60,485 nt of DNA. Source: a virus. Lineage: Duplodnaviria > Heunggongvirae > Uroviricota > Caudoviricetes. The notes under the pieces are model-generated. The model was not told the DNA's origin. It was given only the letters and a program-made list of their open reading frames with translations, and searched no databases. Positions 1-23,334 of the stretch are shown here, one piece after another. Position 1 is the stretch's first letter. Every line of letters begins with the position of its first letter. Made by a program: the position numbers and the translations under genes. Location: IMG/VR virus record IMGVR_UViG_2671181056_000013, positions 1-60,485 of that record, one strand, 5' to 3'.

Positions 1-35
1 AAGCCACTGGAGCACCTCAAAAACACCATCATACA

Positions 36-1217: not shown

Positions 1218-1251
1218 GTTTATTACCTGGAGAAACTTACAATTTTATTTA

Positions 1252-5221: not shown

Positions 5222-5253
5222 CGTTCCTTTGTCTGGTGCTATGTACCGATCAG

Positions 5254-5300: not shown

Positions 5301-5316
5301 TTGAGGGCAAAACGCT

Positions 5317-5706: not shown

Positions 5707-5718
5707 GAGAACTGATTA

Positions 5719-5745
5719 GGCGGTGCAATGCACCGCCTTTTTATC
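5719..5745 (+). terminator. intrinsic terminator (GGCGGTGCA-A-TGCACCGCC plus T-run)
   Basis: Perfect 9-bp stem followed by TTTTT, placed between the convergent umuD'-like gene and mrp copy B. Confidence 0.6.
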
Positions 5746-6844
5746 ACACTGCGCGGAATGCGATTTCGCCAGGTATTACTTCACCTTGCCAATACATTTG
5801 GGCAGCAACGCGATCTGCGAGGTCACGATAAATAGCCGTAAATTCGCTATCTGGACGACTAATAACGGTTGGTGTTCCGTTATCCAGATCTTCACGAAGA
5901 GAGATATGAAGTGGCATTTGGCCTAACAACTGCGTGTTGTATTTCTCGGCCAGTTTCTGTGCTCCACCGGTGCCAAAAATTGGCTCGTGATGACCGCAGT
6001 TACTGCAAATATGCACACTCATGTTTTCAACGATACCCAGTACCGGCACTTCGACTTTTTCGAACATCACAATGCCTTTCTTCGCATCGATCAGCGCGAT
6101 GTCTTGCGGCGTAGTTACCACAACCGCACCAGTTACAGGAATGTTCTGCGCCAGCGTCAATTGAATATCACCAGTGCCCGGTGGCATATCGAGAACGAGA
6201 TAGTCCAGATCAGGCCACAGTGTTTCCTGCAACATCTGCATCAGCGCCTTGCTCGCCATCGGTCCACGCCACACCATTGCATTGTCATCGGTGACCAGAT
6301 AACCAATAGAGTTGGTTGCCAGGCCATGAGACATGATAGGTGCCATGTGAGTACCGTCCGGTGAGGTTGGACGTTGGTTTTCCGCGCCCAGCATGGTTGG
6401 AATTGATGGACCATAGATATCGGCATCCAAAATACCAACTTTCGCACCTTCAGCAGCCAAAGCCAGTGCCAAGTTTACTGCTGTGGAGGATTTACCCACG
6501 CCGCCCTTGCCTGAGCTGACGGCGATAATGTTCTTAACGCCATTAATGCCTGGTTGGTTTTTGACGCGCTTAAGCGTGGCAATGTTGTACGACAGCTTCC
6601 AGTCAATAGCCTTTGCGCCAGTGATACGGAGCAGATCACCACTACATTGCTCTTTCAGGTCTTCAAAAGGCTTATTCCACACGAAAGGCATGATTAGTTC
6701 GACATGCAGTGTGTCATCCATCAACGCAACATGGTGTAACGCTTTAAGCGTAGTCAAGTTGTGTTTCAGGGTTGGGTGCTGAAAATTAGCCAGCGTACCG
6801 GCTACCATTGCTCTCAGGGCATCCGGCGATTTGGACTCGCTCAT
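5744..6844 (-). CDS. mrp: Mrp/ApbC, divergent copy B
   Basis: 366 aa with the same motifs as copy 1, but many synonymous and some non-synonymous differences; its flanking non-coding DNA is unrelated to copy 1. Confidence 0.85.
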   Translation of the reverse strand: MSESKSPDALRAMVAGTLANFQHPTLKHNLTTLKALHHVALMDDTLHVELIMPFVWNKPFEDLKEQCSGDLLRITGAKAIDWKLSYNIATLKRVKNQPGINGVKNIIAVSSGKGGVGKSSTAVNLALALAAEGAKVGILDADIYGPSIPTMLGAENQRPTSPDGTHMAPIMSHGLATNSIGYLVTDDNAMVWRGPMASKALMQMLQETLWPDLDYLVLDMPPGTGDIQLTLAQNIPVTGAVVVTTPQDIALIDAKKGIVMFEKVEVPVLGIVENMSVHICSNCGHHEPIFGTGGAQKLAEKYNTQLLGQMPLHISLREDLDNGTPTVISRPDSEFTAIYRDLADRVAAQMYWQGEVIPGEIAFRAV

Positions 6845-7001
6845 CCCGTCTCCTTTATTTTAATTTGCGCAATTGTCGCCTTGTAGTGTACTCCAGCTAC
6901 GACATTTAATCATTTATGAGAAATGCTGTTATCACATGGCAGACATAAGGCCATTTTGTTACTATCAAGCCCCTTTTCACTACAAAGAAGTAATGCCTAC
7001 T

Positions 7002-8837
7002 ATGACCCAAGTCGCGAAGAAAATTCTGGTGACGTGCGCGCTGCCGTACGCTAACGGCTCAATCCACCTCGGCCATATGCTGGAGCACATCCAGGCTGAT
7101 GTCTGGGTTCGTTACCAGCGAATGCGCGGCCACGAGGTTAATTTCATCTGTGCCGACGATGCCCACGGTACGCCAATCATGCTGAAAGCACAGCAGCTTG
7201 GTATCACACCGGAACAGATGATTGGCGAAATGAGTCAGGAACATCAGACTGATTTCGCAGGCTTTAACATCAGCTATGACAACTATCACTCGACGCACAG
7301 CGAAGAGAACCGTCAGTTGTCCGAGCTTATCTACTCTCGCCTGAAAGAAAACGGTTTTATTAAAAACCGCACCATCTCACAGCTGTACGATCCGGAAAAA
7401 TGCATGTTCCTGCCGGACCGTTTTGTAAAAGGCACCTGCCCGAAATGTAAATCCCCGGATCAATACGGCGATAACTGCGAAGTCTGCGGCGCGACCTACA
7501 GCCCGACTGAACTGATCGAGCCGAAATCGGTGGTTTCTGGCGCTACGCCGGTAATGCGTGATTCTGAACACTTCTTCTTTGATCTGCCCTCTTTCAGCGA
7601 AATGTTGCAGGCATGGACCCGCAGCGGTGCGTTGCAGGAGCAGGTGGCAAATAAAATGCAGGAGTGGTTTGAATCCGGCCTGCAACAGTGGGATATCTCC
7701 CGCGACGCGCCATACTTTGGTTTTGAAATTCCGAACGCGCCGGGCAAATATTTCTACGTCTGGCTGGACGCACCGATTGGCTACATGGGTTCTTTCAAGA
7801 ATCTGTGCGACAAGCGCAGCGACAGCGTAAGCTTCGATGAATACTGGAAGAAAGACTCCACCGCCGAGCTGTACCACTTCATCGGTAAAGATATTGTTTA
7901 CTTCCACAGCCTGTTCTGGCCTGCCATGCTGGAAGGCAGCAACTTCCGCAAGCCGACCAACCTGTTTGTTCATGGCTATGTGACGGTGAACGGCGCAAAG
8001 ATGTCCAAGTCTCGCGGCACCTTTATTAAAGCCAGCACCTGGCTGAATCATTTTGACGCTGACAGCCTGCGTTACTACTACACTGCGAAACTCTCTTCGC
8101 GCATTGATGATATCGATCTCAACCTGGAGGATTTCGTTCAGCGTGTGAATGCCGATATCGTGAACAAAGTGGTTAACCTGGCCTCTCGTAATGCGGGCTT
8201 TATCAACAAGCGTTTTGACGGCGTGCTGGCAAGCGAACTGGCTGACCCGCAGTTGTACAAAACCTTCACTGATGCCGCTGAAGTGATTGGTGAAGCGTGG
8301 GAAAGCCGCGAATTTGGTAAAGCAGTGCGCGAAATCATGGCGCTGGCTGATCTGGCTAACCGCTATGTCGACGAGCAGGCTCCGTGGGTGGTGGCAAAAC
8401 AGGAAGGCCGCGATGCCGACCTGCAGGCAATTTGCTCAATGGGCATAAACCTGTTCCGCGTGCTGATGACTTACCTGAAGCCGGTACTGCCGAAACTGAC
8501 CGAGCGCGCAGAAGCATTCCTCAATACAGAACTGACCTGGGATGGTATCCAGCAACCGCTGCTGGGCCACAAAGTGAATCCGTTCAAAGCGCTGTATAAC
8601 CGCATCGATATGAAGCAGGTTGAAGCACTGGTGGAAGCGTCTAAAGAAGAAGTGAAAGCAGCTGCCGCGCCAGTTACTGGCCCACTGGCAGATGATCCGA
8701 TTCAGGAAACCATCACCTTTGACGACTTCGCAAAAGTTGACCTGCGCGTGGCGCTGATCGAAAACGCAGAGTTTGTTGAAGGTTCTGACAAACTGCTGCG
8801 CCTGATGCGGTGTATGAAGAATAACCAGAATGGTTAA
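7002..8837 (+). CDS. metG: methionyl-tRNA synthetase copy B, truncated after about codon 601 and read through into 10 junction codons
   Basis: Near-identical to the other metG copies except scattered SNPs. Junction at 8805/8806 joins metG to sequence equal to 2524 onward. The ORF-track N-terminal extension (6873-6992) is treated as artefact. Confidence 0.8.
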
Positions 8838-8843
8838 TAGGCG

Positions 8844-9953
8844 TTAGACCGCGCGGAAGGAAATCTCGCCTGGAATGACTTCACCCTGCCAGTAGAGCTG
8901 AGCTGCAACGCGGTCAGCCAGCTGGCGGTAGATAGCGGTAAATTCGCTCTCCGGACGGCTGATAACCGTTGGCGTGCCTTTATCGAGATCCTCACGTAAG
9001 GAGATGTGTAACGGCATCTGCCCCAGCAGCTGTGTGTGGTATTTTTCAGCCAGTTTCTCTGCACCACCGGTACCGAAAATCGGTTCATGGTGACCACAGT
9101 TACTGCAAATATGCACACTCATGTTCTCGACAATACCAAGCACCGGAACCTCGACTTTCTCGAACATCACAATGCCTTTTTTCGCATCGATCAAAGCGAT
9201 GTCCTGCGGGGTGGTGACCACGACTGCACCAGTTACTGGAATGTTTTGCGCCAGCGTCAATTGAATGTCACCGGTGCCTGGCGGCATATCAAGCACCAGA
9301 TAGTCGAGATCCGGCCACAAGGTTTCCTGCAACATCTGCATTAACGCCTTGCTCGCCATCGGTCCACGCCACACCATCGCATTGTCGTCAGTGACCAGAT
9401 AACCAATTGAATTGGTTGCCAGGCCATGAGACATAATCGGTGCCATATGGGTACCGTCCGGCGAAGTTGGACGCTGATTTTCTGCGCCCAGCATGGTGGG
9501 AATTGATGGGCCGTAGATATCGGCGTCCAGAATGCCGACTTTCGCCCCTTCCGCCGCCAGTGCCAGCGCCAGGTTTACCGCCGTGGAGGATTTACCCACG
9601 CCGCCTTTACCGGAACTGACCGCAATGATGTTCTTCACACCATTAATACCCGGCTGATTCTTCACGCGTTTTAAGGTGGCGATATTGTGCGACAGTTTCC
9701 AGTCGATAGCTTTCGCCCCGGTGATACGCAGCAGTTCGGCGCTACATTGCTCTTTTAACTCTTCAAACGCGCTATGCCAGACGAATGGCATAACCAGTTC
9801 CACATGCAACGTGTCGTCCATCCAGGCGACATGGTGCAACGCGTTCAGCGTGGTGAGGTTATGCTTCAGGGTTGGGTGCTGAAAATTGGCCAGTGTCCCG
9901 GCGACCATTGCGCGCAAGGCTTCTGGTGATTTGGCCTGGGATTGTTCGTTCAT
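8844..9953 (-). CDS. mrp: Mrp/ApbC, copy 2 (identical to copy 1)
   Basis: Translation is identical to 2562-3701; the DNA repeat runs from 8806, offset 6282 from copy 1. Confidence 0.9.
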   Translation of the reverse strand: MNEQSQAKSPEALRAMVAGTLANFQHPTLKHNLTTLNALHHVAWMDDTLHVELVMPFVWHSAFEELKEQCSAELLRITGAKAIDWKLSHNIATLKRVKNQPGINGVKNIIAVSSGKGGVGKSSTAVNLALALAAEGAKVGILDADIYGPSIPTMLGAENQRPTSPDGTHMAPIMSHGLATNSIGYLVTDDNAMVWRGPMASKALMQMLQETLWPDLDYLVLDMPPGTGDIQLTLAQNIPVTGAVVVTTPQDIALIDAKKGIVMFEKVEVPVLGIVENMSVHICSNCGHHEPIFGTGGAEKLAEKYHTQLLGQMPLHISLREDLDKGTPTVISRPESEFTAIYRQLADRVAAQLYWQGEVIPGEISFRAV

Positions 9954-10084
9954 CCCGACTCCTTTTTTGTATAGATAAACCATCAGCTGATAGTTTACCT
10001 GAAGAATATAGAGAAGTACTTACTTAACATTTTCCCATTTGGTACTATCTAACCCCTTTTCACTATTAAGAAGTAATGCCTACT

Positions 10085-12118
10085 ATGACTCAAGTCGCGA
10101 AGAAAATTCTGGTGACGTGCGCACTGCCGTACGCTAACGGCTCAATCCACCTCGGCCATATGCTGGAGCACATCCAGGCTGATGTCTGGGTCCGTTACCA
10201 GCGAATGCGCGGCCACGAGGTCAACTTCATCTGCGCCGACGATGCCCACGGTACACCGATCATGCTGAAAGCTCAGCAGCTTGGTATCACCCCGGAGCAG
10301 ATGATTGGCGAAATGAGTCAGGAGCATCAGACTGATTTCGCAGGCTTTAACATCAGCTATGACAACTATCACTCGACGCACAGCGAAGAGAACCGCCAGT
10401 TGTCAGAACTTATCTACTCTCGCCTGAAAGAGAACGGTTTTATTAAAAACCGCACCATCTCTCAGCTGTACGATCCGGAAAAAGGCATGTTCCTGCCGGA
10501 CCGTTTTGTGAAAGGCACCTGCCCGAAATGTAAATCCCCGGATCAATACGGCGATAACTGCGAAGTCTGCGGCGCGACCTACAGCCCGACTGAATTGATC
10601 GAGCCGAAATCGGTGGTTTCTGGCGCTACGCCGGTAATGCGTGATTCTGAACACTTCTTCTTTGATCTGCCCTCTTTCAGCGAAATGTTGCAGGCATGGA
10701 CCCGCAGCGGTGCGTTGCAGGAGCAGGTGGCAAATAAAATGCAGGAGTGGTTTGAATCCGGCCTGCAACAGTGGGATATCTCCCGCGACGCGCCATACTT
10801 TGGTTTTGAAATTCCGAACGCGCCGGGCAAATATTTCTACGTCTGGCTGGACGCACCGATTGGCTACATGGGTTCTTTCAAGAATCTGTGCGACAAGCGC
10901 AGCGACAGCGTAAGCTTCGATGAATACTGGAAGAAAGACTCCACCGCCGAGCTGTACCACTTCATCGGTAAAGATATTGTTTACTTCCACAGCCTGTTCT
11001 GGCCTGCCATGCTGGAAGGCAGCAACTTCCGCAAGCCGACCAACCTGTTTGTTCATGGCTATGTGACGGTGAACGGCGCAAAGATGTCCAAGTCTCGCGG
11101 CACCTTTATTAAAGCCAGCACCTGGCTGAATCATTTTGACGCTGACAGCCTGCGTTACTACTACACTGCGAAACTCTCTTCGCGCATTGATGATATCGAT
11201 CTCAACCTGGAGGATTTCGTTCAGCGTGTGAATGCCGATATCGTGAACAAAGTGGTTAACCTGGCCTCTCGTAATGCGGGCTTTATCAACAAGCGTTTTG
11301 ACGGCGTGCTGACAAGCGAACTGGCTGACCCGCAACTGTACAAAACCTTTACTGATGCCGCTGAAGTGATTGGCGAAGCATGGGAAAGCCGCGAATTTGG
11401 TAAAGCTATCCGTGAAATCATGGCATTGGCTGACCTGGCTAATCGCTATGTCGATGAACAGGCTCCGTGGGTGGTGGCGAAGCAGGAAGGTCGCGATGCA
11501 GATCTGCAGGCGATTTGCTCTATGGGCATTAACCTGTTCCGCGTGCTGATGACGTACCTGAAACCGGTACTGCCGAAACTGACTGAACGTGCAGAAGCAT
11601 TCCTGAATACAGAACTGACCTGGGATGGTATCCAGCAACCGCTTCTGGGCCATAAAGTGAATCCGTTCAAGGCACTGTATAACCGTATCGATATGAAACA
11701 GGTGGAAGCACTGGTGGAAGCATCCAAAGAAGAAGTGAAAGCCACAGCTGCACCGGTAACTGGCCCACTGGCTGACGAACCGATTCAGGAAACCATCACC
11801 TTTGACGACTTCGCCAAAGTTGACCTGCGTGTGGCGCTGATTGAAAACGCGGAGTTTGTCGAAGGTTCTGACAAACTGCTTCGCCTGACGCTGGATCTCG
11901 GTGGTGAAAAGCGTAATGTCTTCTCAGGCATCCGTTCCGCTTATCCAGATCCACAGGCACTGATTGGTCGTCACACCATTATGGTGGCTAACCTGGCACC
12001 ACGTAAAATGCGCTTCGGTATCTCTGAAGGCATGGTGATGGCTGCCGGTCCTGGCGGGAAAGATATCTTCCTGTTAAGCCCGGATGCTGGTGCTAAACCT
12101 GGCCACCAGGTTAAGTAA
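10085..12118 (+). CDS. metG: methionyl-tRNA synthetase, full length (677 aa)
   Basis: Complete ORF including the C-terminal tRNA-binding domain. The 3' third differs at many sites from copies 1 and B. Confidence 0.9.
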
Positions 12119-12140
12119 TTAAACAACCTCTCTTCGCAAT

Positions 12141-12166
12141 GCCCGGCAACACGCCGGGCATTTTCA
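12141..12166 (+). terminator. intrinsic terminator of metG (GCCCGGC-AACAC-GCCGGGC plus T-run)
   Basis: 7-bp GC stem followed by ATTTTC, 23 nt after the metG stop. Confidence 0.7.
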
Positions 12167-12201
12167 TATAGACACAATCCCTCCTGATTTACACAAGCCC
12201 T

Positions 12202-12279: not shown

Positions 12280-12579
12280 ATGTTGAACATTACCCAAGCC
12301 TACCAGGTGGCATTGATCAGTTCATCTCATACATCAGAGGAAGATGCTCGCCGATTCATGATCGCAAGCAATGAGCTGGATTGGGTTTCACAAATTGAGT
12401 ACGGTTGCATTGTCCACGCCGGGTTACAGGACGATGACTGGAAAGATGAGTTGCGTCGATATGGTATATCCGAGGGTGCGATTGCGAACATTCAGAAAGT
12501 ACTTGATGTAGGCTTTAACTCTGTACATTTTGATTGTGGCGCACCGGTCGTTGAAGGGCTTGAGTGCTGGCAATGGTAA
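12280..12579 (+). CDS. hypothetical early protein (99 aa)
   Basis: ORF with GGAG RBS, preceded by the GAAAACAAnTTGTTTTC palindrome. Confidence 0.55.
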   Translation: MLNITQAYQVALISSSHTSEEDARRFMIASNELDWVSQIEYGCIVHAGLQDDDWKDELRRYGISEGAIANIQKVLDVGFNSVHFDCGAPVVEGLECWQW

Positions 12580-12615
12580 TCCGGCAATCGCTTCATACTA
12601 GATAACGGAGAATTT

Positions 12616-12801
12616 ATGCTTAAAGAAGACTCATATCTACTAAAGGCGCTTGAAATGAGTGGCGTTGAACCTACAGTGAAAAACGCTCACGATATCTACC
12701 TTCAGTTTTCGACAGAGCTGAAACAGCTCATAAATAAATATGGAGTGAACGACTCCAGCGTCAAAGCCATGATAGATGATGAATTAGACCATCTCATCTA
12801 A
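12616..12801 (+). CDS. hypothetical small protein (61 aa)
   Basis: ORF with RBS-like GGAGAA upstream. Confidence 0.45.
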   Translation: MLKEDSYLLKALEMSGVEPTVKNAHDIYLQFSTELKQLINKYGVNDSSVKAMIDDELDHLI

Positions 12802-12899
12802 TCAAACCGTTGATAATGGCGGTCACAATTTGATTCTTTTCTATAAGAACCCGTTGATCGCCACTACTACCCTCCCATACCAGCAATCACATCATTAAA

Positions 12900-13700
12900 T
12901 ATCAATAGGTTATGGTTGTTTATACCAATAAGAAAACAACTAAATAACAGATCAACGAAACATCAACGCTTTCTCCCGATTTGGTCTAAAAAATTGACGT
13001 TATCACACATCACTTCTTATACCCGTAATTCTACGCAGCAGATAGCGCCACAGCGTCCAAATTTCACCACAGACGACTCAACACACTACCAACAAAAACA
13101 CACGCTCAAAATCGCTCCCGTTGCGTTACACAACCATATAAACAACTTATTTTCAGGCATAACAAAACAACCAAATAACACATATGCCATTACCCAAAAC
13201 AACCAACCTCTTTATGGCAGGCTACCGAAAAGACCCACCTCTTCTCCCCAGGCTACCGGACAACCAACCTAACTTTCACAGGCAATCCGAAAACATTCAT
13301 ACGCGCGATACCCACGACACGCCATTACCCAAACAGCGAAGAAACACCTGAACCGCTGAAACCCTAACGAAGCCTGTAACCGCAAGGTTTCTCTCAATCC
13401 CAAAAGACACGAAACATAACAATCACGGGAAACGCCATTACCCAATACACGAATAACTACAAAAGCCTTCACACACTCCAGACAAACAACTCAAACACAA
13501 TAACGAAAGCAATCGCCCACCTGCCATTACTCCATACACGGAGAAGAACAATCACCAAAACGACGAGAACACCCCCATAGAAGAACCACCGCAAAACTAA
13601 CGAAACCACATACACCGACAGAGAAAACAACACACCCAATTCACCAACAGAAATAGTCGCCGTATAGAACATTCTGGAAGGAGTGAGCATTAACGCCTAT
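12900..13700. repeat. G-poor, CA-rich non-coding tract with dispersed GCCATTACCCA and CAGGCTACCG...CCCACCT repeats
   Basis: Top strand is almost devoid of G for about 800 bp. Four GCCATTAC(C/T)C copies near 13186, 13321, 13433, 13523; two CAGGCTACCG copies at 13217-13273. The only ORF translates to low-complexity sequence. Confidence 0.6.
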
Positions 13701-13854
13701 AGAGAGGTTGAGACAGATAAAACACAACATGTATAGCGAAGAAGCCAGGTATGTATAAGTGGAGAGGGAAGGAGGGGGGTCGCCTCCTTTTTCGTATTTA
13801 TTCAACTCCTGATTTTATCCCCCGTAACACCCCCTACGGTCAGCCTTCGGTCCA

Positions 13855-13992
13855 TACAGGGAAAAGGTTGCATCCAGCTACAGAAACGGCTGGGTTGCCT
13901 TCGGGGGAACGGCTGGGGATTTTCAGGGAAACGGTCGAGTTGCCTGTGTGGATTTCGGGAAAAGGCTCGATGCCGGTTCTGGAACGGCGGCG
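13855..13992. repeat. iteron-like direct repeats (GGGAAAMGG family, about 6 copies at 21-32 bp spacing), set 1
   Basis: CAGGGAAAAGG, CAGAAACGGC, CGGGGGAACGGC, CAGGGAAACGG, TCGGGAAAAGGC, CTGGAACGGCGG in series; no convincing ORF. Confidence 0.55.
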
Positions 13993-14370
13993 TACCGGTA
14001 TAGCGAGAGAGAGAGTTGCAGCTACCCACCTGTAATGTGCGGGAAGAAGAGAGGCGCTCACGTGCAGGCTGACTTGCTTACCGCTGGATTCCCTCTGAAT
14101 GCCAGATACAGCGTAATTGTGCCAGACAGCCAGCGGGTCACAATCGATTTCAGTAGGTTTTCGGGGAGAGGATTATTCTACCCACCAGCCCCGCGGCGCG
14201 CGTAGAGCAGAATATCGTAAATACTGGCTCTCGTGTCGTTCCCGGATATTCACTGCCCAGCCTGGCTTTCCCGACATAAAATCCTTTTTCGCCTTTATCT
14301 TATTGCGATAATAACACCAACAAGTAAACAGCATATTTAGACGTTATAGAAACGAAGTGAGGATGAAGAG

Positions 14371-14589
14371 ATGATTAAGATGCCTGTGACGGTTGAGGTG
14401 TGGGGCGTGGATTCCCTGGCTGAGTGTCTGGATGCAGTGGGGCCGGAGTTGTACCGCAAGTTGTGGTCGTTCGTCCCGGCAGAAGGGGAATCGCCCAAAG
14501 GGAAGGATATCTGGCACCTGCTGAGTGAAGATGAAAAGCGGGAGCTGGTGGGCGCGGTACACAGCGAGTTCCCGGACGACCAAGATTAA
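14371..14589 (+). CDS. hypothetical acidic small protein (72 aa)
   Basis: ORF with GAGGA RBS, followed by a terminator. Confidence 0.5.
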   Translation: MIKMPVTVEVWGVDSLAECLDAVGPELYRKLWSFVPAEGESPKGKDIWHLLSEDEKRELVGAVHSEFPDDQD

Positions 14590-14595
14590 GAGTGA

Positions 14596-14618
14596 GGCCA
14601 CCAGCACGGTGGCTTTTG
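14596..14618 (+). terminator. intrinsic terminator (GCCACC-AGCAC-GGTGGC plus TTTT)
   Basis: Hairpin plus T-run immediately after the stop at 14589. Confidence 0.6.
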
Positions 14619-14727
14619 TCGCTATTAACCTCGGGGCAGCGCAGCACCGTAACGATATACTTTGTGGCCGTTTTCTTACTGGTATTGTTTACGTAATTCA
14701 GAAAACAACATGTTTAAGGATTGCTTT

Positions 14728-15057
14728 ATGTTTGCAAATATCGACATCAACCAAATTAAGAAATTGACTCAAAAAGAGTTTGACCAGTTTTATGAGCTGG
14801 AAGGTTGGTCTTCCACTCTGATTAATTCAAGATGGGTGCTGGAGCTGATGACTCGTGATGACGCACCTGCTTTGATGATTTGCGACATGGGTGAAGATGC
14901 TGACTTTATGGATATGAGCGAATTTTGTGTGGACACATACAACCGCAGCCAGAAGTACTACTTCACATGCGATAGCGAAAATGACGTGATTTCTAAGGTC
15001 TATCTTCACCTCGTCCAGCATTGGGACGTTCAGGACTTCCTTGCGATATTCGCGTAA
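14728..15057 (+). CDS. hypothetical early protein (about 110 aa)
   Basis: Start chosen at the ATG after an AAGGA RBS, downstream of the palindromic motif at 14701; the ORF track begins at 14662. Confidence 0.55.
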   Translation: MFANIDINQIKKLTQKEFDQFYELEGWSSTLINSRWVLELMTRDDAPALMICDMGEDADFMDMSEFCVDTYNRSQKYYFTCDSENDVISKVYLHLVQHWDVQDFLAIFA

Positions 15058-15211
15058 GCCCAACCAAAGCCAGCATTGCTGGCTTAACTTCATCTGTAGC
15101 CGCAGGGAAGAACCTGCATATCGCTCATGCGCCTGATCAATATGCTTTGTAGCCGTTTTCTTACTGGTATTATTTACGCCATTGAGAAAACAAGTTGTTT
15201 ACGGAGTTGTG

Positions 15212-15523
15212 ATGAAAAAATCATTGGTTCTTGGTCTGGACAAAGACCAGAAGAGAAAAGAGAAGCCTGCACTGGTTGCTCAATTAACTTTGCTGGACAT
15301 CGTTGCCAATGGAACCTCTATTCGTCTGTTCCGTGAAACAGCGGTGTCTTTCGATAAAAACACCTTTACTCGTTATGTAATGAATGTTCGTCGCCAGCGT
15401 GGAAAAGGCTGGATGGCATTTCAAAGAATGTGGCCGGAACATCAGCTCGAACTGGCTTTGATGGAAGTTAACCGCGTGGCCCAGCAAGAGATTCAGAGAG
15501 CATCAGTGATGGCAATAGCCTGA
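15212..15523 (+). CDS. hypothetical early protein (about 104 aa)
   Basis: ATG after a GGAG RBS; the 55-bp upstream block is shared with the 14660-14715 region. Confidence 0.55.
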   Translation: MKKSLVLGLDKDQKRKEKPALVAQLTLLDIVANGTSIRLFRETAVSFDKNTFTRYVMNVRRQRGKGWMAFQRMWPEHQLELALMEVNRVAQQEIQRASVMAIA

Positions 15524-15559
15524 TAATGTGCAAGTGGTAATTAGTCGACAGTACGACAG

Positions 15560-15585
15560 CCCCGCCATCCTTACGGGGTTTTTTG
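15560..15585 (+). terminator. intrinsic terminator (CCCCG...CGGGG plus T6)
   Basis: GC hairpin followed by TTTTTT. Confidence 0.7.
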
Positions 15586-15636
15586 TATTGTAAGTACATA
15601 CCTATGTCTATAAAATAGAAAAATAACCAAGACACT

Positions 15637-16044
15637 ATGGAGAGTGATATGAGCGTTAAACGAGAAAACCTGACAGTTGATGTCTACTATGCTTCAGAAA
15701 GCGCCGAAGGTAAGAATGTAGCTAAAATCACCGTCGTTACGTACAACACCGAAACTGGAACTGAAGTTCAGGCAAGTACTATTGTGCGTAAAGGAGATAC
15801 ATCAGGCGGGGAATATGAGGCGCAATATCAGTCCATTTTTGATGCAACGGACCCGTTGTTGTTGAAAATTGAAAGTTACTTCCGTAAGGTGAATAAAGAG
15901 GTGTTTGAAACCATGATGAATATGGTTAACACCGTATTCGCTTCCAGTCTGAACACTAACACTACCTGGATTGGTCAGTATGGTCTGCGCATTACCTCCG
16001 GCATTCCTGCTGACACCTTAATCCCTGAAAGCGTATTCGCTTAA
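15637..16044 (+). CDS. hypothetical early protein (135 aa)
   Basis: ORF with its own upstream AT-rich region and downstream terminator. Confidence 0.6.
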   Translation: MESDMSVKRENLTVDVYYASESAEGKNVAKITVVTYNTETGTEVQASTIVRKGDTSGGEYEAQYQSIFDATDPLLLKIESYFRKVNKEVFETMMNMVNTVFASSLNTNTTWIGQYGLRITSGIPADTLIPESVFA

Positions 16045-16056
16045 TCCTCTTTGAAT

Positions 16057-16080
16057 GGCGCGTAAACCGCGCCATTTTCT
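16057..16080 (+). terminator. intrinsic terminator (GGCGCG-TAAAC-CGCGCC plus T-run)
   Basis: Hairpin and ATTTTCT directly after the stop. Confidence 0.65.
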
Positions 16081-16090
16081 TATGCCCGAT

Positions 16091-16130
16091 AACAATTTGT
16101 TTTCTGCCTTATCTGATTTGTGAAAATGCT
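16091..16130 (+). promoter_or_regulatory. about 40-bp phage promoter-like element, copy 3 of 3
   Basis: AACAATTTGTTTTCTGCCTTATCTGATTTGTGAAAAT is closely similar to the elements at 5183 and 12203. Confidence 0.4.
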
Positions 16131-16162
16131 TTCACTGAAAGCAACTTGATAAGGAAACCATC

Positions 16163-16537
16163 ATGGGACTTGATATCTACATTGAGACGCAACCAAAAAA
16201 CGATCTGAATAACGATGCATCCAGAAAGAAGGTTGCTTACTTCCGTAAGTTCAATGCTCTCTTTGGGTGGATGGAACGCAACGTAGGTGAAGTCAAAAAT
16301 TGTGAGCTTTTAGAATTAACGATGAATGACATTTGTGCTCTGAAAGCTCATTTGATGCACATGAACGAAAGTAACTGCGAAGAGTACTTACCTACCTGTG
16401 AAGGTTTTTTCTTCGGCAGTCAGGAGTACGATGAAGGGTACTGGCATGACGTGGGGGAGTTGAAAAAACTTGTGGAAGAGCTGATTAAGAACCACGACTT
16501 TCACAATAACAGACTGACCTTCTGCGCCTGGTGGTAA
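16163..16537 (+). CDS. hypothetical early protein (124 aa, Cys-rich)
   Basis: ORF with AAGGAAA RBS. Confidence 0.6.
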   Translation: MGLDIYIETQPKNDLNNDASRKKVAYFRKFNALFGWMERNVGEVKNCELLELTMNDICALKAHLMHMNESNCEEYLPTCEGFFFGSQEYDEGYWHDVGELKKLVEELIKNHDFHNNRLTFCAWW

Positions 16538-16539
16538 AT

Positions 16540-16683
16540 ATGGGCGATTTCAAGAAACGCCTGAAGGAAAGAGCCGAGATAGTCAGAAAGCAAAACGCCT
16601 CTTCTGTCATCAGATACGCAAGGCAGTTTAGTCGCAACAACAAATCAGTTGAGGAAAAGATCCTTAGCGTAATCGGTCGATAA
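16540..16683 (+). CDS. hypothetical small basic protein (47 aa), possibly translationally coupled
   Basis: ATG 3 nt after the preceding stop; followed by hairpin AAGGCCACCACTGCTGGTGGCCTT. Not in the ORF track (below its size cut-off). Confidence 0.35.
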   Translation: MGDFKKRLKERAEIVRKQNASSVIRYARQFSRNNKSVEEKILSVIGR

Positions 16684-16732
16684 TTATTAAGGCCACCACT
16701 GCTGGTGGCCTTAAATGACCATCCTGTTTCCC

Positions 16733-16805
16733 GCAGGCTAAAAACACCAACCTCTTACCTCCAGGCAACCGACAAACCCACCTGTTCCCGTCCGGCTACC
16801 GCAAC
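16733..16805. repeat. second cluster of CAGGCTACCG...CCCACCT-family repeats
   Basis: GCAGGCTAAAAACACCAACCTC, CCAGGCAACCGACAAACCCACCTG and CCGGCTACCGCAAC resemble the repeats at 13217-13273. Confidence 0.45.
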
Positions 16806-16887
16806 TTTCCACTTTGACGCCTTATTCGTACAACGATAATTAACGCCAACAAGAAAACAATTTGTTATTTACGATAAGGAATTAATC

Positions 16888-17370
16888 ATGAATTTTATCG
16901 CTACTGTAAACGCACCCGCACATGGCAATATCGCTGTAACGTTCTCTGACATTGAAAAACGAGTACTTGGTGCATGGCGCGACAATGAGACGGTAGAACT
17001 GTCAGCACAAGAAAAATGCATTATTGCACGCGACATCATTGGCAATCGTCGTTACTCGCGGGTATTTGAGAAAGCGTATGTGGTAAATTCTGGATTCGGA
17101 ACGTTCGTCTTTCCGGTGCGCTCCGGGCGATTCTGCCAGTCCAAGCTGATTGAGTTCGCTACGCAGATTTCTGTCTGGATTAAAACTCAATCGTCGTTCA
17201 AATTTTCCGACGATGAAGCAGTATCGCAGGGGATGCGGATCGCCAACAATGCAATTAAATGCAAAAACATTACGTATACCGCTGGCGTTGATACATGGAA
17301 ACTGTTTTGCGCTAACTTTATGCTGAATGTATACGCAAGCAACCGCATCCACATCCTTGATGGCGTGTAA
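16888..17370 (+). CDS. hypothetical early protein (160 aa)
   Basis: ORF with AAGGA RBS, preceded by the palindromic motif at 16853. Confidence 0.6.
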   Translation: MNFIATVNAPAHGNIAVTFSDIEKRVLGAWRDNETVELSAQEKCIIARDIIGNRRYSRVFEKAYVVNSGFGTFVFPVRSGRFCQSKLIEFATQISVWIKTQSSFKFSDDEAVSQGMRIANNAIKCKNITYTAGVDTWKLFCANFMLNVYASNRIHILDGV

Positions 17371-17379
17371 CTGAGAAGA

Positions 17380-17402
17380 GGGCCAGTAACGGCCCTTTCT
17401 CT
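17380..17402 (+). terminator. intrinsic terminator (GGGCC-AGTAAC-GGCCC plus T-run)
   Basis: Hairpin and TTTCTCT 10 nt after the stop. Confidence 0.65.
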
Positions 17403-17417
17403 ATAGCCACCAGATGC

Positions 17418-17580
17418 CGCAGGGAAATTTTCAGAAACGGCGAGGAACGTATTCATGAACCGACGGGGAACGGCCAGGATTTTTTCGGGAAACGGCTGCA
17501 TTCGCCTTTATGTAGAAAAAACATCGGGAAGCTGGTGGAATCCAACCAGCGGTTGTCGGACAGGTGAGCGGGGAAAATTA
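17418..17580. repeat. iteron-like direct repeats (GGGAAAMGG family), set 2
   Basis: CAGGGAAATTTTCAGAAACGG, ACGGGGAACGGC, TCGGGAAACGGC, TCGGGAAGCTGG; closely resembles set 1 including the GATTTT...CGGGAAACGG units. Confidence 0.5.
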
Positions 17581-17962
17581 TGATGACTTTCGTCGCCTGA
17601 GACATCCAGATTTCTTTCGTAGCGTAATCGCATACGTGATTAAGTGGTGTGATTATGTGAAAAATCACGCGCACATAATACGCGAGCGGATACGGAACAA
17701 AACAAAATGCCGATCCGCGCCGACAAATAAACGCGGATCACATAGCAAGACTAAAAGCCAATGATTAACTATGCGCTATAGCGCAATATAACGCGTTTTA
17801 AGCGCGTTAATGTGTTAAGTAATGGGTATGTACTGGCAAGGATATAAAAGCGCGTCTATGGCGTTATTTTGGCGCTTATTTTTATGTTGTTGGAGTGAGT
17901 CAAAGACAATAAAAAACGCGCCATCATTGGCGCGTTATGGTGGGAGTATTGGAAACGAAAAA

Positions 17963-17997
17963 AGCGCCCACTATGGGCGCTATTGTTTTTATTTTTC
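17963..17997 (+). terminator. GC hairpin AGCGCCCA-CTA-TGGGCGCT plus T-run; inverted partner copy at 18458-18478
   Basis: One of several GCGC-rich hairpins in the AT-rich 17760-18000 tract; the same 19-mer recurs as its reverse complement 495 bp away. Confidence 0.55.
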
Positions 17998-18216
17998 TAA
18001 GCGAATATTAAAACCAGCGTTTAAAAATTCTTGAAGCATTAAAGTAACATCTGCTTCATTGATTCCTGCGCGCGCTCTATGTTCTACGTCATTGATGTTT
18101 ATTTTAAACGTTGTTTCATCAACCACTTCAGAACTTAGAGCATATCCAGCTAAACCAGCAATATCATAAACAAGAGTATGATTATTGATATTTACGCCAG
18201 AGATGAAAATAACCAT
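17989..18216 (-). CDS. hypothetical small protein (75 aa)
   Basis: Second ORF of a two-gene minus-strand cassette lying between the inverted GC hairpins; AT-rich. Confidence 0.45.
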   Translation of the reverse strand: MVIFISGVNINNHTLVYDIAGLAGYALSSEVVDETTFKININDVEHRARAGINEADVTLMLQEFLNAGFNIRLEK

Positions 18217-18236
18217 GATTAAGCTCCTTAAAAAAA

Positions 18237-18440
18237 TTAAATAGAATTATGAAGTTTTCCGATTAATGCGCTTAAACGTAAGTATTCACGTTTACGCTTG
18301 CAATCTCGTTTGCTGTTAAGCAAATCAGAAAACGTAAAATTTAATTGGTCGCGTTGCGCGATTAAATCATTGATTAATTCTAGTTTATAAGCGCGATACT
18401 TTGCGCGATATTCCGCGCGGATCTTGTCATAGCTGACCAT
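18237..18440 (-). CDS. hypothetical small basic protein (67 aa, K/R-rich)
   Basis: AAGGAG RBS 9 nt upstream, immediately preceded by the hairpin 18458-18478. Confidence 0.45.
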   Translation of the reverse strand: MVSYDKIRAEYRAKYRAYKLELINDLIAQRDQLNFTFSDLLNSKRDCKRKREYLRLSALIGKLHNSI

Positions 18441-18489
18441 TTTTTAAAGCTCCTTTAAAGCGCCCATAGTGGGCGCTTGATTCCATTAA

Positions 18490-19140
18490 TTACGCTTTGA
18501 AAGCGTCAGCTAGATAATTGTAGAAATCATTCTTGATAAAGCGATATTGCTGTGTACCAGCTTTGGCGCTTCCCATTCCTTTGACTTTCTCAACAAGTCC
18601 GAGACGTTCGCAAAGATTGATTAGCTGGTTAGCTTGAGTATAGCCAGCGTCCAATTTAATTTCACACGCTTTTTTAGCTTCATTCATTAAATCGAAAACA
18701 GCGCCATTCGTGAACGTGTCGATCTCGTCGTTAATCATATCGATTAAAGCGAATACACGAGATCCAGACATATCAGCGACGGAATAAACACATTTTCCAG
18801 CTTTAATTGATTTAACCAGATAAACCAGTTTTTCCAGTGAATAACTATTAGTCATAGCGTCACGAAAAAATACTTCTGGCGCTTGTTTGCTTGCTTTAAT
18901 CGCATAGTAGAAAACAGAGCATAATTTTTCGTCTTCTACAGCGTTTACGACGTTGTTGATGAAGTAAGCAAGTTTAGTGGTCGCAGCTTGCATATTTGCT
19001 TTGTCTGCTTTAGTGTGCGTACCATTTTTATAATGTTCGTTATATGTTTGAGTTGCCAGATCTGCTTTTTCGCGCAGTTCGTCGGATACAATAGATGCAG
19101 CTTCAATGATGGACTTTTTAGAAATGATAATGTTAGCCAT
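18490..19140 (-). CDS. hypothetical protein (216 aa)
   Basis: ORF with a long AT-rich upstream region (19141-19400). Confidence 0.6.
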   Translation of the reverse strand: MANIIISKKSIIEAASIVSDELREKADLATQTYNEHYKNGTHTKADKANMQAATTKLAYFINNVVNAVEDEKLCSVFYYAIKASKQAPEVFFRDAMTNSYSLEKLVYLVKSIKAGKCVYSVADMSGSRVFALIDMINDEIDTFTNGAVFDLMNEAKKACEIKLDAGYTQANQLINLCERLGLVEKVKGMGSAKAGTQQYRFIKNDFYNYLADAFKA

Positions 19141-19437
19141 GATTTTATTCCTTAGTATAAATATTAAAATTTAACTCAAGAAAGAAAGTGTTTTGCACTC
19201 GTTCCTGATGCGTTCAATTATCGATACGCGAAAAAAGATTGCAAGTGTTTTTTTAAGTTTTTTTGCAGGGATGAAAGTCCTAGAAATAAATGTTAGATCG
19301 TCGAGGGTGTTCCCTAAATAAATAATCGATTCCGGCTTTAGACCTTATATATTTATACGGGGTAGAATTGAAAGAGTATAAAATGAATGGCATGTAAAAT
19401 AATAACCGGACTTAGCCGGTTATTACCCTTATAGAAA

Positions 19438-19959
19438 TTAAAACGGAAGGATTCGTTCAACCCAATCGAAGAAAATAAGTATTTTTCTACCGTCTTCCAA
19501 CTTAAGTGTGACTAGACAGGCGTCAACGCCATCTGACGTTCCCTCAATTTCGCGACCGTCTGCCATGTAGACCCTTATAGATTTGCCGTTTTGGTAAGCC
19601 TGACGACATATCTTAAAAAAGTCACGACGTGATGGCTGATTAACCATCTGTTCATTGTTTAGCGTTAGTCGACCTGTGAATGAAGTGTCAACCTCTTCTA
19701 TGCCCGACTCAATTGTGCTAATGCGCTCAAGAGGGAGCCTTATACGATTTGTGTTGCTAAGCGGATCTGGTGTGAGGTTCAGCTTATTTCTTGCGCTCAA
19801 TAGCCCGTAGACATACATGCAAAACACTTGGCCGTCTTCGAGAGTGACTCTTACAGGAAATTTTGCACTCCGCCAGAAGAGCAAGGTACGTTCAGCATGT
19901 TCGTAGTCTCGCGGCCATACTTCAGCCGGTATGCCGTAGGTGATGTCCAATGTTCTCAT
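19438..19959 (-). CDS. hypothetical cytoplasmic protein (173 aa), translationally coupled to the upstream secreted protein
   Basis: ATGA overlap with the 19956-20549 ORF; a hairpin plus T-run terminator at 19396-19424 on the minus strand. Confidence 0.6.
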   Translation of the reverse strand: MRTLDITYGIPAEVWPRDYEHAERTLLFWRSAKFPVRVTLEDGQVFCMYVYGLLSARNKLNLTPDPLSNTNRIRLPLERISTIESGIEEVDTSFTGRLTLNNEQMVNQPSRRDFFKICRQAYQNGKSIRVYMADGREIEGTSDGVDACLVTLKLEDGRKILIFFDWVERILPF

Positions 19960-20549
19960 TCTGATACTCTTAGAGGTGTTTTCAGCAACCCAAATTTAAA
20001 TTCTTTGTTACCAACGACAAAGAAGGGAACCTCAACATAGATTTTTTTATCGACGGATTTAGAGTTCGCTGTTTTCTGTATGTCACGAACGATACGTTTT
20101 GAGGTATTTTCATCGATAAACAATACCTTTCCACTTGTATTCCCTTCAGCCTTGGCGTAAGTAACGATAGGCTCTTCATTGCCAACCCTAATGTTTACTT
20201 GGCAACCTGTTGTAGCCATTTCATCACAGTAAAGTGTGCCGTCTTGAACTTCCAAAACAATTCCAGATGGCTTCATGGCTTCGTCAGAGCTTACATTAAC
20301 GTTTTCTGGTACAGCGGTTCCGTTAATTTGCAACCGTAATCTTTCTTTTCCTGCATTAAGTATTGTTTCTTCTGCGTTATCTGAGAATCTGAACCAGACT
20401 GGTTGAATCAGACCTCGTGATTCGTATTTTAGTACGTCTTCAGAAGTATACATGCTGTACGTTTTTTGCATGTCGGAGACGATATCTGACAACGCATTGG
20501 CGGAAAATGACGAGAGGTATATACAAGCAAGAAGTAACGAACGTTTCAT
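19956..20549 (-). CDS. secreted or periplasmic protein (197 aa) with N-terminal signal peptide
   Basis: MKRSLLLACIYLSSFSANA-LSD looks like a signal peptide with an AxA cleavage site; own promoter region at 20550-20650. Confidence 0.6.
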   Translation of the reverse strand: MKRSLLLACIYLSSFSANALSDIVSDMQKTYSMYTSEDVLKYESRGLIQPVWFRFSDNAEETILNAGKERLRLQINGTAVPENVNVSSDEAMKPSGIVLEVQDGTLYCDEMATTGCQVNIRVGNEEPIVTYAKAEGNTSGKVLFIDENTSKRIVRDIQKTANSKSVDKKIYVEVPFFVVGNKEFKFGLLKTPLRVSE

Positions 20550-20730
20550 TTTTATACAGCGATTATTGCAAAGTAGAATTATAAATATCCAATAGTCTCA
20601 AACGATAAGTTTTCAACTGTAAATAGCAGACGTGTTTTCTCTAAAAGCTGTGCGGCAAAGGCGTTGTTGCCGCACTCTGTCTATTAGCTCTTCAAGTCTG
20701 GCAATTCTGAAATTGACTAAGAATCCAATA

Positions 20731-21009
20731 TTACGGCAGTTTGCTTAGAATTTGCTCTAAATCTTCCTTTGTCATATTAGAGTTCTCATAGATGCGCATG
20801 ATTTTCTCACGAGCCTTAGCAGAGACTCCAACGGCAGATGAAACTTTGTCAAATTCAGCCATCGTCATCGTCTCCAGAATGGTATTGATAACTTCAGCCT
20901 TAGACATTTTGATGTTTTTTTCTTTTAGTTTCATTTGAAACTTTCCAAGTTTGTCATTGGCCTTATCGGACAATGCCACCTGACAATAAGTTGTTTTCTT
21001 TTCGCTCAT
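20731..21009 (-). CDS. hypothetical small protein (92 aa)
   Basis: ORF immediately downstream of the helicase gene (3-nt gap); a hairpin terminator follows on the minus strand at 20650-20675. Confidence 0.5.
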   Translation of the reverse strand: MSEKKTTYCQVALSDKANDKLGKFQMKLKEKNIKMSKAEVINTILETMTMAEFDKVSSAVGVSAKAREKIMRIYENSNMTKEDLEQILSKLP

Positions 21010-21011
21010 AA

Positions 21012-22571
21012 CTAATCTCGTTTCAGAACTCCAAAATCGAATGCGCCATCAATAGGCAATACACCTTCTGCAAAGCCAGGTGTGGTGTCGATGATGTGTT
21101 TTCGCTCATAAGAGTGAGACAACAGGTATTTGTTGCTAATGTCAATGAAATCAGTGATAAAACACACGTTTGCCTGATTCTTCTTGGCTCGTAAGCCACG
21201 ACCGACACGCTGCCTCATTTCAACTTCTGCTTTCCCACCACCAGCAAGAATGACCGCACCAACGCTTGGCACATCAACACCGACATCCAGAATAGTCGAG
21301 CCTATTAAAACATCTATTTCTCCAGACGCTAAACTGTTCAGCTTTGCTTGCCTTGTCGCCTGGTTAGATTCCCCATAGATGAAGTCAACTCTAAGGCCGG
21401 ACTCTTTCATCATTTCCATCAGGATTTGCCCGTGGCGTTTAAGGCGAACCAGAGTCATACAATTGAGAGAATGTTGCTTATAGAGCAATGCTTCGCGCAC
21501 AATGGCCTCGTTACGTCCCAAATTATACACGATCCCCAACTGATAAGCCTTTTGGTAGGCGGTGCTCATACCAACTCTAAAATTGAGGTGTTTGTTGGCA
21601 AGTTCGGCCTTGATTCTGGCCTCGTCTGGCTTGTAGGCAACTTTATGATAAAGGAAGTACGGCTTTGCCAGAATGCCTCGATCAATCAGATACTTTTCTG
21701 TGACTTTAATTTCAATTCGCCCGGCCACCGCCATCAGGCGCATGTTGGCTTCCGTCGAATCCTTCATGAACGGCGTGGCTGTAAGCGCCAGACGATAGTC
21801 TGCGTTCACACATAATCTGGCGATGTCATAGAAATTTGAGCCTGAAGACTCATGCGCCTCTTCCAGAATAAGAAGAGAGACACTTGAAAGGAAGCGTTTC
21901 ACCAACTCCCGACGTTTGAGGTGGTAGCTTTTCTTATCTGGTGTTGCATCGCGTGGTGGTTCTTCGAGGAAACTTGCAAGAGTTTGAACTGTAGCGACGT
22001 TGATATGTCGTGATACCTGGAACTCACCCGAGCCAATGACTCCAACCTTTTGGTCTTTTAACCACGGTTCGCCATTTTTGGCGCGGTAGTCGATGGATCT
22101 CTGGAAGTTTTCGGCCATTTGAAACATCAGAACAGAGCGGGTTGTTAAAAATAATGTCATTCGACCGATACGTGCAGCTGCTTTGCAGGCAACGTTAGAT
22201 TTCCCGCCACCAGTAGCGATCTGCGCAATCATCATTCCCTCTCGAACCAGTGTTTCCACAGTCTGATCCTGATACGCATAATCAGGATTGTATGGGAATG
22301 GGTTAACCGCCGGATTTGGTTTACCAAGCGCCGGGGCTTTGTCTTTGCGGATATGAACACATTTGATGCCCGCCTTGTTCAAATTAGCCGCCACGGGCTT
22401 GGCAAAGCCAGCAGGGAACGAGTTTTTGCTCCAGTTGAACATTGTGCTTGTGCCCTTCCAGTCGCCAGCCTCGACTTCGTAGCTCAACATTTGCTGCACC
22501 AGTTGCTTTACCTTGTCATCTGCGCCAGAAATAAGCGCATTTACTGCGTTAGATACAATCCGAACAGTCAT
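21012..22571 (-). CDS. SF2 (DEAD/DEAH-box-like) helicase
   Basis: Walker A ATGGGKS, motif II LEEAHE, motif III TAT and motif VI QRVGRGLR are all present. Confidence 0.85.
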   Translation of the reverse strand: MTVRIVSNAVNALISGADDKVKQLVQQMLSYEVEAGDWKGTSTMFNWSKNSFPAGFAKPVAANLNKAGIKCVHIRKDKAPALGKPNPAVNPFPYNPDYAYQDQTVETLVREGMMIAQIATGGGKSNVACKAAARIGRMTLFLTTRSVLMFQMAENFQRSIDYRAKNGEPWLKDQKVGVIGSGEFQVSRHINVATVQTLASFLEEPPRDATPDKKSYHLKRRELVKRFLSSVSLLILEEAHESSGSNFYDIARLCVNADYRLALTATPFMKDSTEANMRLMAVAGRIEIKVTEKYLIDRGILAKPYFLYHKVAYKPDEARIKAELANKHLNFRVGMSTAYQKAYQLGIVYNLGRNEAIVREALLYKQHSLNCMTLVRLKRHGQILMEMMKESGLRVDFIYGESNQATRQAKLNSLASGEIDVLIGSTILDVGVDVPSVGAVILAGGGKAEVEMRQRVGRGLRAKKNQANVCFITDFIDISNKYLLSHSYERKHIIDTTPGFAEGVLPIDGAFDFGVLKRD

Positions 22572-22635
22572 AAACCTCTTTCCTTAGTGCCTTTTGTATG
22601 TTATTTGGCTATTATAATAAGTAAGTGATTACTTA

Positions 22636-23334
22636 GTGGATTGTAGCAATAAAATGGACGTAAAAATCACGATTTTGCAGGTTGATGTTGCCAACCTTCG
22701 CCCGAATACCTGGAACACCAATTCGGTTGGTGCGCAGAATTTCGAAAAACTGAAAGGTTCTATCGAAAAATTGGGCTTTTTTAAGCCAATTTTGGCTCGT
22801 GAACTTGAAGATGGATTTTTTGAAATCCTCGGCGGCGAACATCGCTGGCGTGCCGCTATTGAGCAAGGAATTTCAACGGTTCCAGTGCTTTCTGTGGGCA
22901 AAATTAGCGATGTCGTAGCTAAACAGATGTCACTGGTGGACAACGAGCGATACGGTGAAGACGACCAAATCGCATTGCAACGCTTCATTGAAGAAATTCA
23001 GTCAGAACTTGACTATCAACTGTCTGAAATCGCCCCGTATGACGACGAAATCTCGATGGTTTTAGCAAAAGAGGCGGCAATCGACCTTGAAGCACTGGAG
23101 GCGTTGTCTCGTGGTAGTGATGAGCCTGTCGATACCGACAAACGAGAGAAAACCGAACGTGTGGGGGCGGAACATCAGACCATGCGCTTCAAAGTAACTT
23201 TCGATGCGTCAGATCGTGTTGCAGAAACCATAAAAAACATCATCAAAGAGCAGGCTATTAACACCGGTAATGAAATGGAGAACGCTGGTGAGGCTCTGGT
23301 GTGGCTGGTCGACTACTACAAGGAGCGTATGTAA
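22636..23334 (+). CDS. ParB/Srx-fold N-terminal-domain protein (ParB-like nuclease domain)
   Basis: GGEHRWRAA motif typical of the ParB N-terminal domain; the true start may be the ATG at 22654. Confidence 0.7.
   Translation: MDCSNKMDVKITILQVDVANLRPNTWNTNSVGAQNFEKLKGSIEKLGFFKPILARELEDGFFEILGGEHRWRAAIEQGISTVPVLSVGKISDVVAKQMSLVDNERYGEDDQIALQRFIEEIQSELDYQLSEIAPYDDEISMVLAKEAAIDLEALEALSRGSDEPVDTDKREKTERVGAEHQTMRFKVTFDASDRVAETIKNIIKEQAINTGNEMENAGEALVWLVDYYKERM

Follow-up and report, generated by a model that had tools for sequence, protein, structure and literature searches.

What two overlapping genes do on the minus strand of a phage-related element, and whether their products act together, is the question raised by the DNA analysed here, positions 1 to 60,485 of IMG/VR virus record IMGVR_UViG_2671181056_000013 (Caudoviricetes; this whole stretch of 60,485 nucleotides (nt) is called the window). 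The original prediction, made from the letters and their open reading frames (ORFs), took the pair for a self-contained operon encoding a secreted protein and a coupled cytoplasmic partner, with superinfection exclusion or receptor masking as the suggested role. The comparisons below favour another reading, which we regard as probable: an optional exported cargo gene and a backbone gene for an FljA-like regulator appear to form one unit, coupled but not obligate partners, on a phage-plasmid of the SSU5/pHCM2 type. According to this proposal, the locus would be a short transcription unit joining the two, in which the first gene would specify a Sec-exported, probably disulfide-bonded, β-rich periplasmic protein from a family found almost only on phage-plasmids. 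The second, translationally coupled to it through an ATGA overlap, would specify a paralogue of FljA from a phage-plasmid clade, with two Sm/Hfq-like domains (coordinates in Table 1).

The 173-amino-acid (aa) product of the second gene matches PF03614 (Flag1_repress) along the whole profile (positions 1–170 of 170; E = 1.4e-68; 230.5 bits against a cut-off of 24) and also matches phrog_1444. Authentic FljA proteins were found by a database search with an FljA sequence, the returned matches being used for comparison, and over its whole length the protein is 35% identical to FljA of Salmonella (P0102) and 36% identical to that of Escherichia coli (P0111). Fourteen columns are invariant across the canonical and phage-plasmid clades, namely Y8, G9, E13, R17, R72, E84, D113, F115, G140, G144, D165, W166, V167, and R169. 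The predicted structure consists of two tandem Sm/Hfq-like domains, with the N-terminal helix and the strongly bent five-stranded β-sheet that follows it in folds of this kind, and this model suggests an RNA-binding regulator. At the sequence level an internal repeat is not significant (E = 0.14), and a sequence search of the PDB returned 0 matches for either protein of the pair. Compared with Hfq/Sm-like and WYL small β-barrels, the FljA-like protein differs in carrying two domains in tandem in one chain rather than forming a single-domain hexamer, and it has no significant sequence similarity to Hfq. By homology with FljA, its most likely activity would be to bind an mRNA leader and block translation.

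The nearest known systems are FljA, which represses translation of phase-1 flagellin and is encoded by the fljBA operon of Salmonella, together with the fljA genes of the E. coli flk/flm type and of pBSSB1. Besides the full-length family match and the invariant residues, they share with the unit in the window an arrangement in which the regulator is second in a two-gene operon and the first product is exported, and they too lie on or near mobile, phage-like DNA. However, canonical fljA directly follows a flagellin gene (fljB or flkA, as in loci L025 and L027), whereas no flagellin gene stands beside the fljA-like gene in the window or in any phage-plasmid locus examined, the upstream position being taken by an orphan or by nothing. 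The window protein also falls in a separate phage-plasmid clade, encoded as a backbone gene of an element of approximately 108 kilobases (kb), and this clade, unlike canonical FljA, occurs in hosts without flagella.

That the window carries a phage-plasmid of the SSU5/pHCM2 type follows from the matches of the region: Shigella sonnei plasmids of ~108 kb agree with it at 100% identity and many plasmids of E. coli (105–128 kb), p09EL50 of O104:H4 among them, at 95–99%, and the phages CMS-2020a, PhiR41_1, Cyrano, and SSU5 are relatives. By tblastn, the FljA-like protein is encoded in 835 plasmid records, mainly of Klebsiella (345), Escherichia (229), Enterobacter (92), Yersinia (62), and Salmonella (60), with Shigella plasmids also among the carriers. 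Nearly all of these records are non-mobilizable plasmids of about 100–115 kb, and nearly all gene copies are full length. A scan of a genome collection aimed at canonical FljA added five further phage-plasmid-type loci only. All the phage-plasmid loci share the arrangement helicase – 92-aa gene – variable slot – fljA-like gene – 216-aa gene, and SSU5/pHCM2/pMT1-type phage-plasmids carry the fljA-like gene as part of their backbone. An fljA-like annotation already stands in the database records of SSU5 and pHCM2, and such annotations on elements of this type go back years; as far as could be found, the literature holds no study of the fljA-like genes of SSU5, pHCM2, or pMT1.

Both ORFs are present where the original prediction placed them, and the ATGA overlap by which it joined them is read directly from the sequence. 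Given that the two are under purifying selection (ratio of nonsynonymous to synonymous substitution rates, dN/dS, about 0.2–0.27; about 0.21–0.22 for the gene of the exported protein), they are real genes; their rates of evolution exceed those of the adjoining helicase and 216-aa genes several-fold. In homologous pairs of 46–58% identity from Klebsiella, Salmonella, and metagenomic phage-plasmids, the exported-protein gene is always the immediate upstream neighbour of fljA-like, and the divergent pairs L004, L007, and L009 are spaced by a 4-nt overlap, a 1-nt overlap, or a 6-nt gap. Since such tight spacing is kept at this distance, co-expression seems to have been selected. On the other side of the question, phage PhiR41_1 encodes an FljA-like protein that is 100% identical over 169 residues and has other genes upstream, the exported protein being absent. 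The fljA-like gene mostly occurs in this way, as only 65 plasmid records hold the exported-protein gene against the 835 with fljA-like, so that about 8% carry it. The identical protein of PhiR41_1 thus indicates that the two products are co-expressed rather than obligate partners. Of the earlier idea of a coupled cytoplasmic partner, the coupling stands, whereas the FljA family membership (PF03614) had been missed and a dedicated partner is not what was found. As a separate observation, an E. coli chromosome (CP125919; L011, 5321–6525) holds a decaying integrated copy of the two-gene region, in which the exported-protein gene is broken into fragments of 81 and 112 aa and adjoins a degenerate FljA-like gene of 48% identity.

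The first product begins with MKRSLLLACIYLSSFSANA, followed after the predicted cleavage site by LSD; K2 and R3 form a basic n-region, the h-region SLLLACIYLSSF supplies a 12-residue hydrophobic core (highest 9-residue Kyte–Doolittle mean, 2.43), and A-N-A occupies positions −3 to −1 ahead of a leucine. All parts of a Sec signal peptide with an ANA site are thereby present when judged by rule, as had been claimed. Homologues of 46% identity and above retain a signal-like N-terminus with an AxA site, as does a relative at 29%, although the h-region varies in sequence; two cysteines (C108 and C116) are conserved down to 29% identity. The conserved signal peptide, AxA site, and cysteine pair together support export and a probable disulfide bond in the periplasm. 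Two other readings of the N-terminus were rejected. To read 'LLAC' as a lipoprotein signal would make Cys9 the modified residue and leave a signal peptide of 8 residues, and Cys9 is absent from P0010, P0013, P0014, and P0099; a start at Met27, where the PHROG profile begins, is ruled out by the N-terminal extension that divergent homologues conserve.

The family of the exported protein is small and narrowly distributed. phrog_18942 (E = 2.9e-118) is its sole family match, and searches of Pfam, NCBIfam, and PADLOC with the 197-aa protein gave none. It forms 15 clusters in a collection of 5.8 billion proteins, and a profile search for remote relatives among 1.84 billion representatives yielded 8 matches only, all in the same phage-plasmid slot. 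Its gene occurs in one phage record in addition to the plasmid records counted above, Klebsiella and Shigella plasmids among them. The structure prediction and fold search that had been proposed were run, and the fold search proved uninformative: the AlphaFold2 model has a predicted local distance difference test (pLDDT) score of 66, and the searches returned generic β-sandwiches and uncharacterised phage proteins only. IalB (invasion-associated locus B; PDB 3dtd), an exported β-sandwich, was also compared with the protein by structural superposition, as a tentative relative. No homologue with a virion-structural role was found.

The exported-protein gene occupies a slot (19960–20730 in the window) that differs from one relative to another. 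The slot is empty in L012, holds a lipoprotein in SSU5, and holds other orphans in PhiR41_1 and Cyrano. In the most divergent lineage the member of the exported-protein family is encoded on the other strand, and the gene that overlaps fljA-like is another orphan. In the comparison with PhiR41_1 the recombination junction falls exactly at the fljA-like start, MRTLDITYG in the window standing against MVKDITYG and the remainder being identical, and the homology to p09EL50-type plasmids ends just upstream of the ATG of the 197-aa gene. The gene of the exported orphan is one of several in this hot spot whose cargo products are directed to the envelope, and lysogenic conversion is a plausible role for the protein; in the proposed mechanism it would be a co-expressed accessory protein of the moron type, directed to the envelope and not required by the regulator. 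The two-gene unit is accordingly real, yet fairly ordinary as accessory modules go, and nothing found here singles out its exported protein.

Several observations concern the slot itself. Across the window and the equivalents in L001–L004, L007, L009, L012, L019, and L023, it behaves as a recombination hot spot between the 92-aa and fljA-like genes, with break points exactly at gene boundaries, the fljA-like start codon included. Two orphan families recur in it, one of about 178–199 aa starting with 'LxELPFVD' (family A) and one of about 183–198 aa starting with 'MALSN' (family B); the 197-aa exported protein represents a third (family C), and lipoproteins and a 117-aa secreted protein also occur, in differing combinations. 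The start of the family A gene sits in a conserved hairpin, CATGTGCTC...GAGCACATG (L004, about 4240–4282; L009, about 3645–3684; L023, about 4814–4855), which would sequester the Shine–Dalgarno sequence and the ATG and could be a translational control element. The window lacks this hairpin.

Hairpin terminators on both sides and a promoter region of its own had also been attributed to the unit, and these fare unequally. Both hairpins are stable. The downstream one, which a simple terminator scan did not flag, has the features of a Rho-independent terminator and is probably the intrinsic terminator that ends the unit; it is kept in L001–L004, L007, L009, and L012, with compensatory changes and longer T-runs in L009 and L012, and the compensatory changes indicate that the unit has a real 3' end. 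The upstream one was detected by the scan as a terminator for the plus strand, but its continuation on the minus strand is just AGCUUUUAG, with a run of four U; SSU5 and L007 have analogous hairpins with T-runs past the 92-aa gene, and it is possible that this element separates the unit from the helicase and 92-aa genes. As for the promoter, a perfect TATAAT and an extended −10 candidate precede the first gene, but no good −35 was seen for either, which leaves a promoter there plausible only.

Superinfection exclusion or receptor masking, in which the periplasmic protein would block entry of this or other phages with the help of the downstream protein, is an unlikely account of the unit, yet it has some observations in its favour. 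The first protein carries an export signal; the slot hosts lipoproteins and other secreted orphans in relatives, as is typical of lysogenic-conversion loci; the exported protein evolves faster than backbone genes (nonsynonymous rate, dN, of 0.33–0.43 vs 0.06 for the helicase), which is compatible with an arms race; and the unit has terminators of its own. Being a small exported protein of a temperate element, encoded in a moron-like slot that varies and has terminators of its own, it also recalls Cor, Llp, SieA, and T4 Imm/Sp, from which it differs in having no sequence or fold similarity to them and in not being a lipoprotein. The database searches revealed no likeness to known exclusion or defence proteins, the fold searches led to nothing specific, the supposed partner is a Sm-fold regulator of the FljA family that also occurs on its own, and the gene is confined to a minor share of the related plasmids. 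A part of the exported protein in exclusion or receptor masking is therefore speculation, for which none of these searches gave support. At the opposite extreme, the two genes might be unrelated neighbours whose overlap is a functionless by-product of cassette recombination at the fljA-like start, a view that fits the junction with PhiR41_1, the end of the p09EL50-type homology, and the opposite-strand arrangement in the most divergent lineage. This we consider very improbable: the tight overlap or abutment is kept in three divergent lineages, which suggests selection for co-expression, and the view is otherwise largely compatible with the favoured explanation, differing from it only in degree.

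A shut-off of motility has somewhat less to recommend it than exclusion and is improbable as well. The FljA-like protein would repress translation of host fliC, the periplasmic protein would act on the flagellar apparatus or envelope, and the lysogen would be non-flagellated, so that it could resist flagellotropic phages, evade immunity, or save energy. Full-length homology to FljA with conserved motifs speaks for it, and plasmid-borne FljA-type repressors are known to silence fliC and can render E. coli non-motile (PMC2652032). A shared octamer may be added, as TTGCAATA precedes the ATG at a distance of 22 nt in both the fliC leader of E. coli K-12 (L022, 4629–4622) and the leader of the 197-aa gene (window 20571–20564); a run of at least 8 nt shared at the same offset is met at 4 of the 2127 ATGs of the window (0.19%). 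As a fliC-leader-like operator the octamer was set aside, because PhiR41_1 lacks it ahead of its identical fljA-like gene, as do the divergent loci; nothing resembling the fliC leader is conserved in the element. It also overlaps the candidate −10 element, and the sharing is probably due to chance or to that element. Against motility shut-off stands the distribution of the gene. Klebsiella, Y. pestis, and Shigella have no functional flagella, but the fljA-like gene is intact and conserved in phage-plasmids of all three, and the exported protein, too, is encoded in Klebsiella and Shigella. Conversely, E. coli LF82, O104:H4 strain 2009EL-2050, and S. Typhi CT18 with pHCM2 are flagellated, H-typed carriers, so that, with carriers of both kinds, constitutive repression of host fliC is unlikely to be the main role. 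Because the gene is conserved in non-flagellated hosts and, unlike canonical fljA, is never found linked to flagellin, the main target would more likely be an mRNA of the phage-plasmid or another non-flagellin mRNA than fliC alone.

The preferred explanation, an FljA-like backbone regulator coupled to optional exported cargo, has to be held against several points that weigh on the other side. At 35% identity the function may differ from translational repression, and Sm-like and WYL folds also bind single-stranded DNA or small ligands. Literature searches found no experiment on any phage-plasmid FljA-like protein, nor an RNA target. Promoter-like sites in the region are not above the level of shuffled sequence (9 found vs 9.4 expected), a result that also tempers the claim of a separate promoter. 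Moreover, the conserved adjacency and coupling across divergent pairs could mean that a functional link between the two proteins is underrated here.

Phage-plasmids of the SSU5/pHCM2/pMT1 type are common in clinical Enterobacteriaceae, which is why the target of the regulator matters. If host flagellin were repressed, carriage would alter motility, H-antigen expression, stimulation of TLR5, and sensitivity to flagellotropic phages; if other RNAs are targeted, as the host range suggests, the protein would be an unstudied post-transcriptional regulator of phage-plasmid biology and a hint that fljA came from phages. A tentative extension, which we put forward as possible though doubtful, is that the phage-plasmid clade consists of widespread tandem-Sm RNA-binding translational repressors with non-flagellin targets, that canonical fljA is a domesticated offshoot of it, and that the exported protein is an envelope effector under the same control. 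Were this so, hundreds of clinical elements of Klebsiella, E. coli, Salmonella Typhi (pHCM2), and Y. pestis (pMT1) would carry such repressors, with targets such as mRNAs for maintenance, for the lysis–lysogeny choice, or for immunity between related elements.

Two loci with canonical fljA–flagellin pairs were observed among phage-type genes. In an E. coli contig (RROQ01000050; L025) the pair lies among Ead/Ea22, a Phd/Fic pair, a phage integrase, and a P7-type C1 repressor, and in Salmonella (L027) it lies with Hin and a P4-like primase. Such neighbours fit a phage origin of the flagellin phase-variation cassette and of fljA.

Table 1. Features of the two-gene unit and its neighbours, in window coordinates
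Feature	Position	Strand	Basis or remark
75-aa gene	17989–18216	−	downstream neighbour
67-aa gene	18237–18440	−	downstream neighbour
216-aa gene	18490–19140	−	downstream neighbour
Downstream hairpin, followed by a short U-run (AUUUUA)	19396–19429	−	RNA fold; free energy (dG) −15.3 kcal/mol, z −3.4; just past the fljA-like stop
fljA-like gene, 173 aa	19438–19959	−	PF03614 (Flag1_repress); predicted tandem Sm/Hfq-like fold
ATGA stop/start overlap	19956–19959	−	read from sequence; implies translational coupling
Gene of exported orphan protein, 197 aa, phrog_18942	19956–20549	−	mature part β-rich; conserved C108, C116
Predicted Sec (signal peptidase I) signal peptide, residues 1–19	20493–20549	−	cleavage after ANA; judged by rule
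Promoter-like extended −10 candidate, TGGATA-18-TGcAATAAT	20562–20591	−	consensus scan
Perfect TATAAT	20583–20578	−	consensus scan and sequence reading
Upstream GC-rich hairpin	20650–20675	−	dG −22.1 kcal/mol, z −4.0; past the 92-aa gene
92-aa gene	20731–21009	−	upstream neighbour, conserved
Helicase gene	21012–22571	−	upstream neighbour

The unit is situated in the maintenance region of the phage-plasmid, near two ParB-like genes and a DEAD-box helicase gene. It had been described as transcribed opposite to flanking early genes, which does not hold: the direct neighbours on both sides are all on the minus strand, and the unit is embedded in a 4.6-kb minus-strand block, with plus-strand genes only beyond it (12280–17370 and from 22636 onward). 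Among these neighbours, the 67-aa ORF matches phrog_6145, annotated as 'MIT family metal ion transporter', a label that is implausible for a soluble-looking protein of 67 residues and is probably a mis-annotation propagated from SSU5_119. Just after the 75-aa gene, at 17908–17995, lie matches on both strands to small RNA (sRNA) families (MicX, Hrs1, and STnc350); an Rfam scan of 17000–23000 gave matches below threshold only, near this segment, that to MicX scoring 34 bits against a gathering score of 75. Most likely these matches reflect a hairpin that terminates transcription in both directions, and not an sRNA.

Farther away, positions 1–12200 of the window are DNA of chromosomal type and not phage DNA. 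A PapD-like fimbrial chaperone gene (498–1217) is followed by three tandem copies of a divergent pair of apbC/mrp and metG (methionyl-tRNA synthetase), repeated with a period of about 3.1–3.2 kb. Copies 1 and 3 are identical across the 300-nt segments reported by a repeat finder, copy 2 being only 78–94% identical, and metG is truncated (475 aa) in the first copy and full length in the third (680 aa). Positions 63–12119 (yehC–yehE–apbC–metG) are matched by E. coli chromosomes, and the phage-plasmids of S. sonnei and E. coli have a single apbC–metG copy of their own. The window thus looks like a phage-plasmid joined to a chromosome by recombination in the shared apbC–metG segment, or like an assembly chimera.

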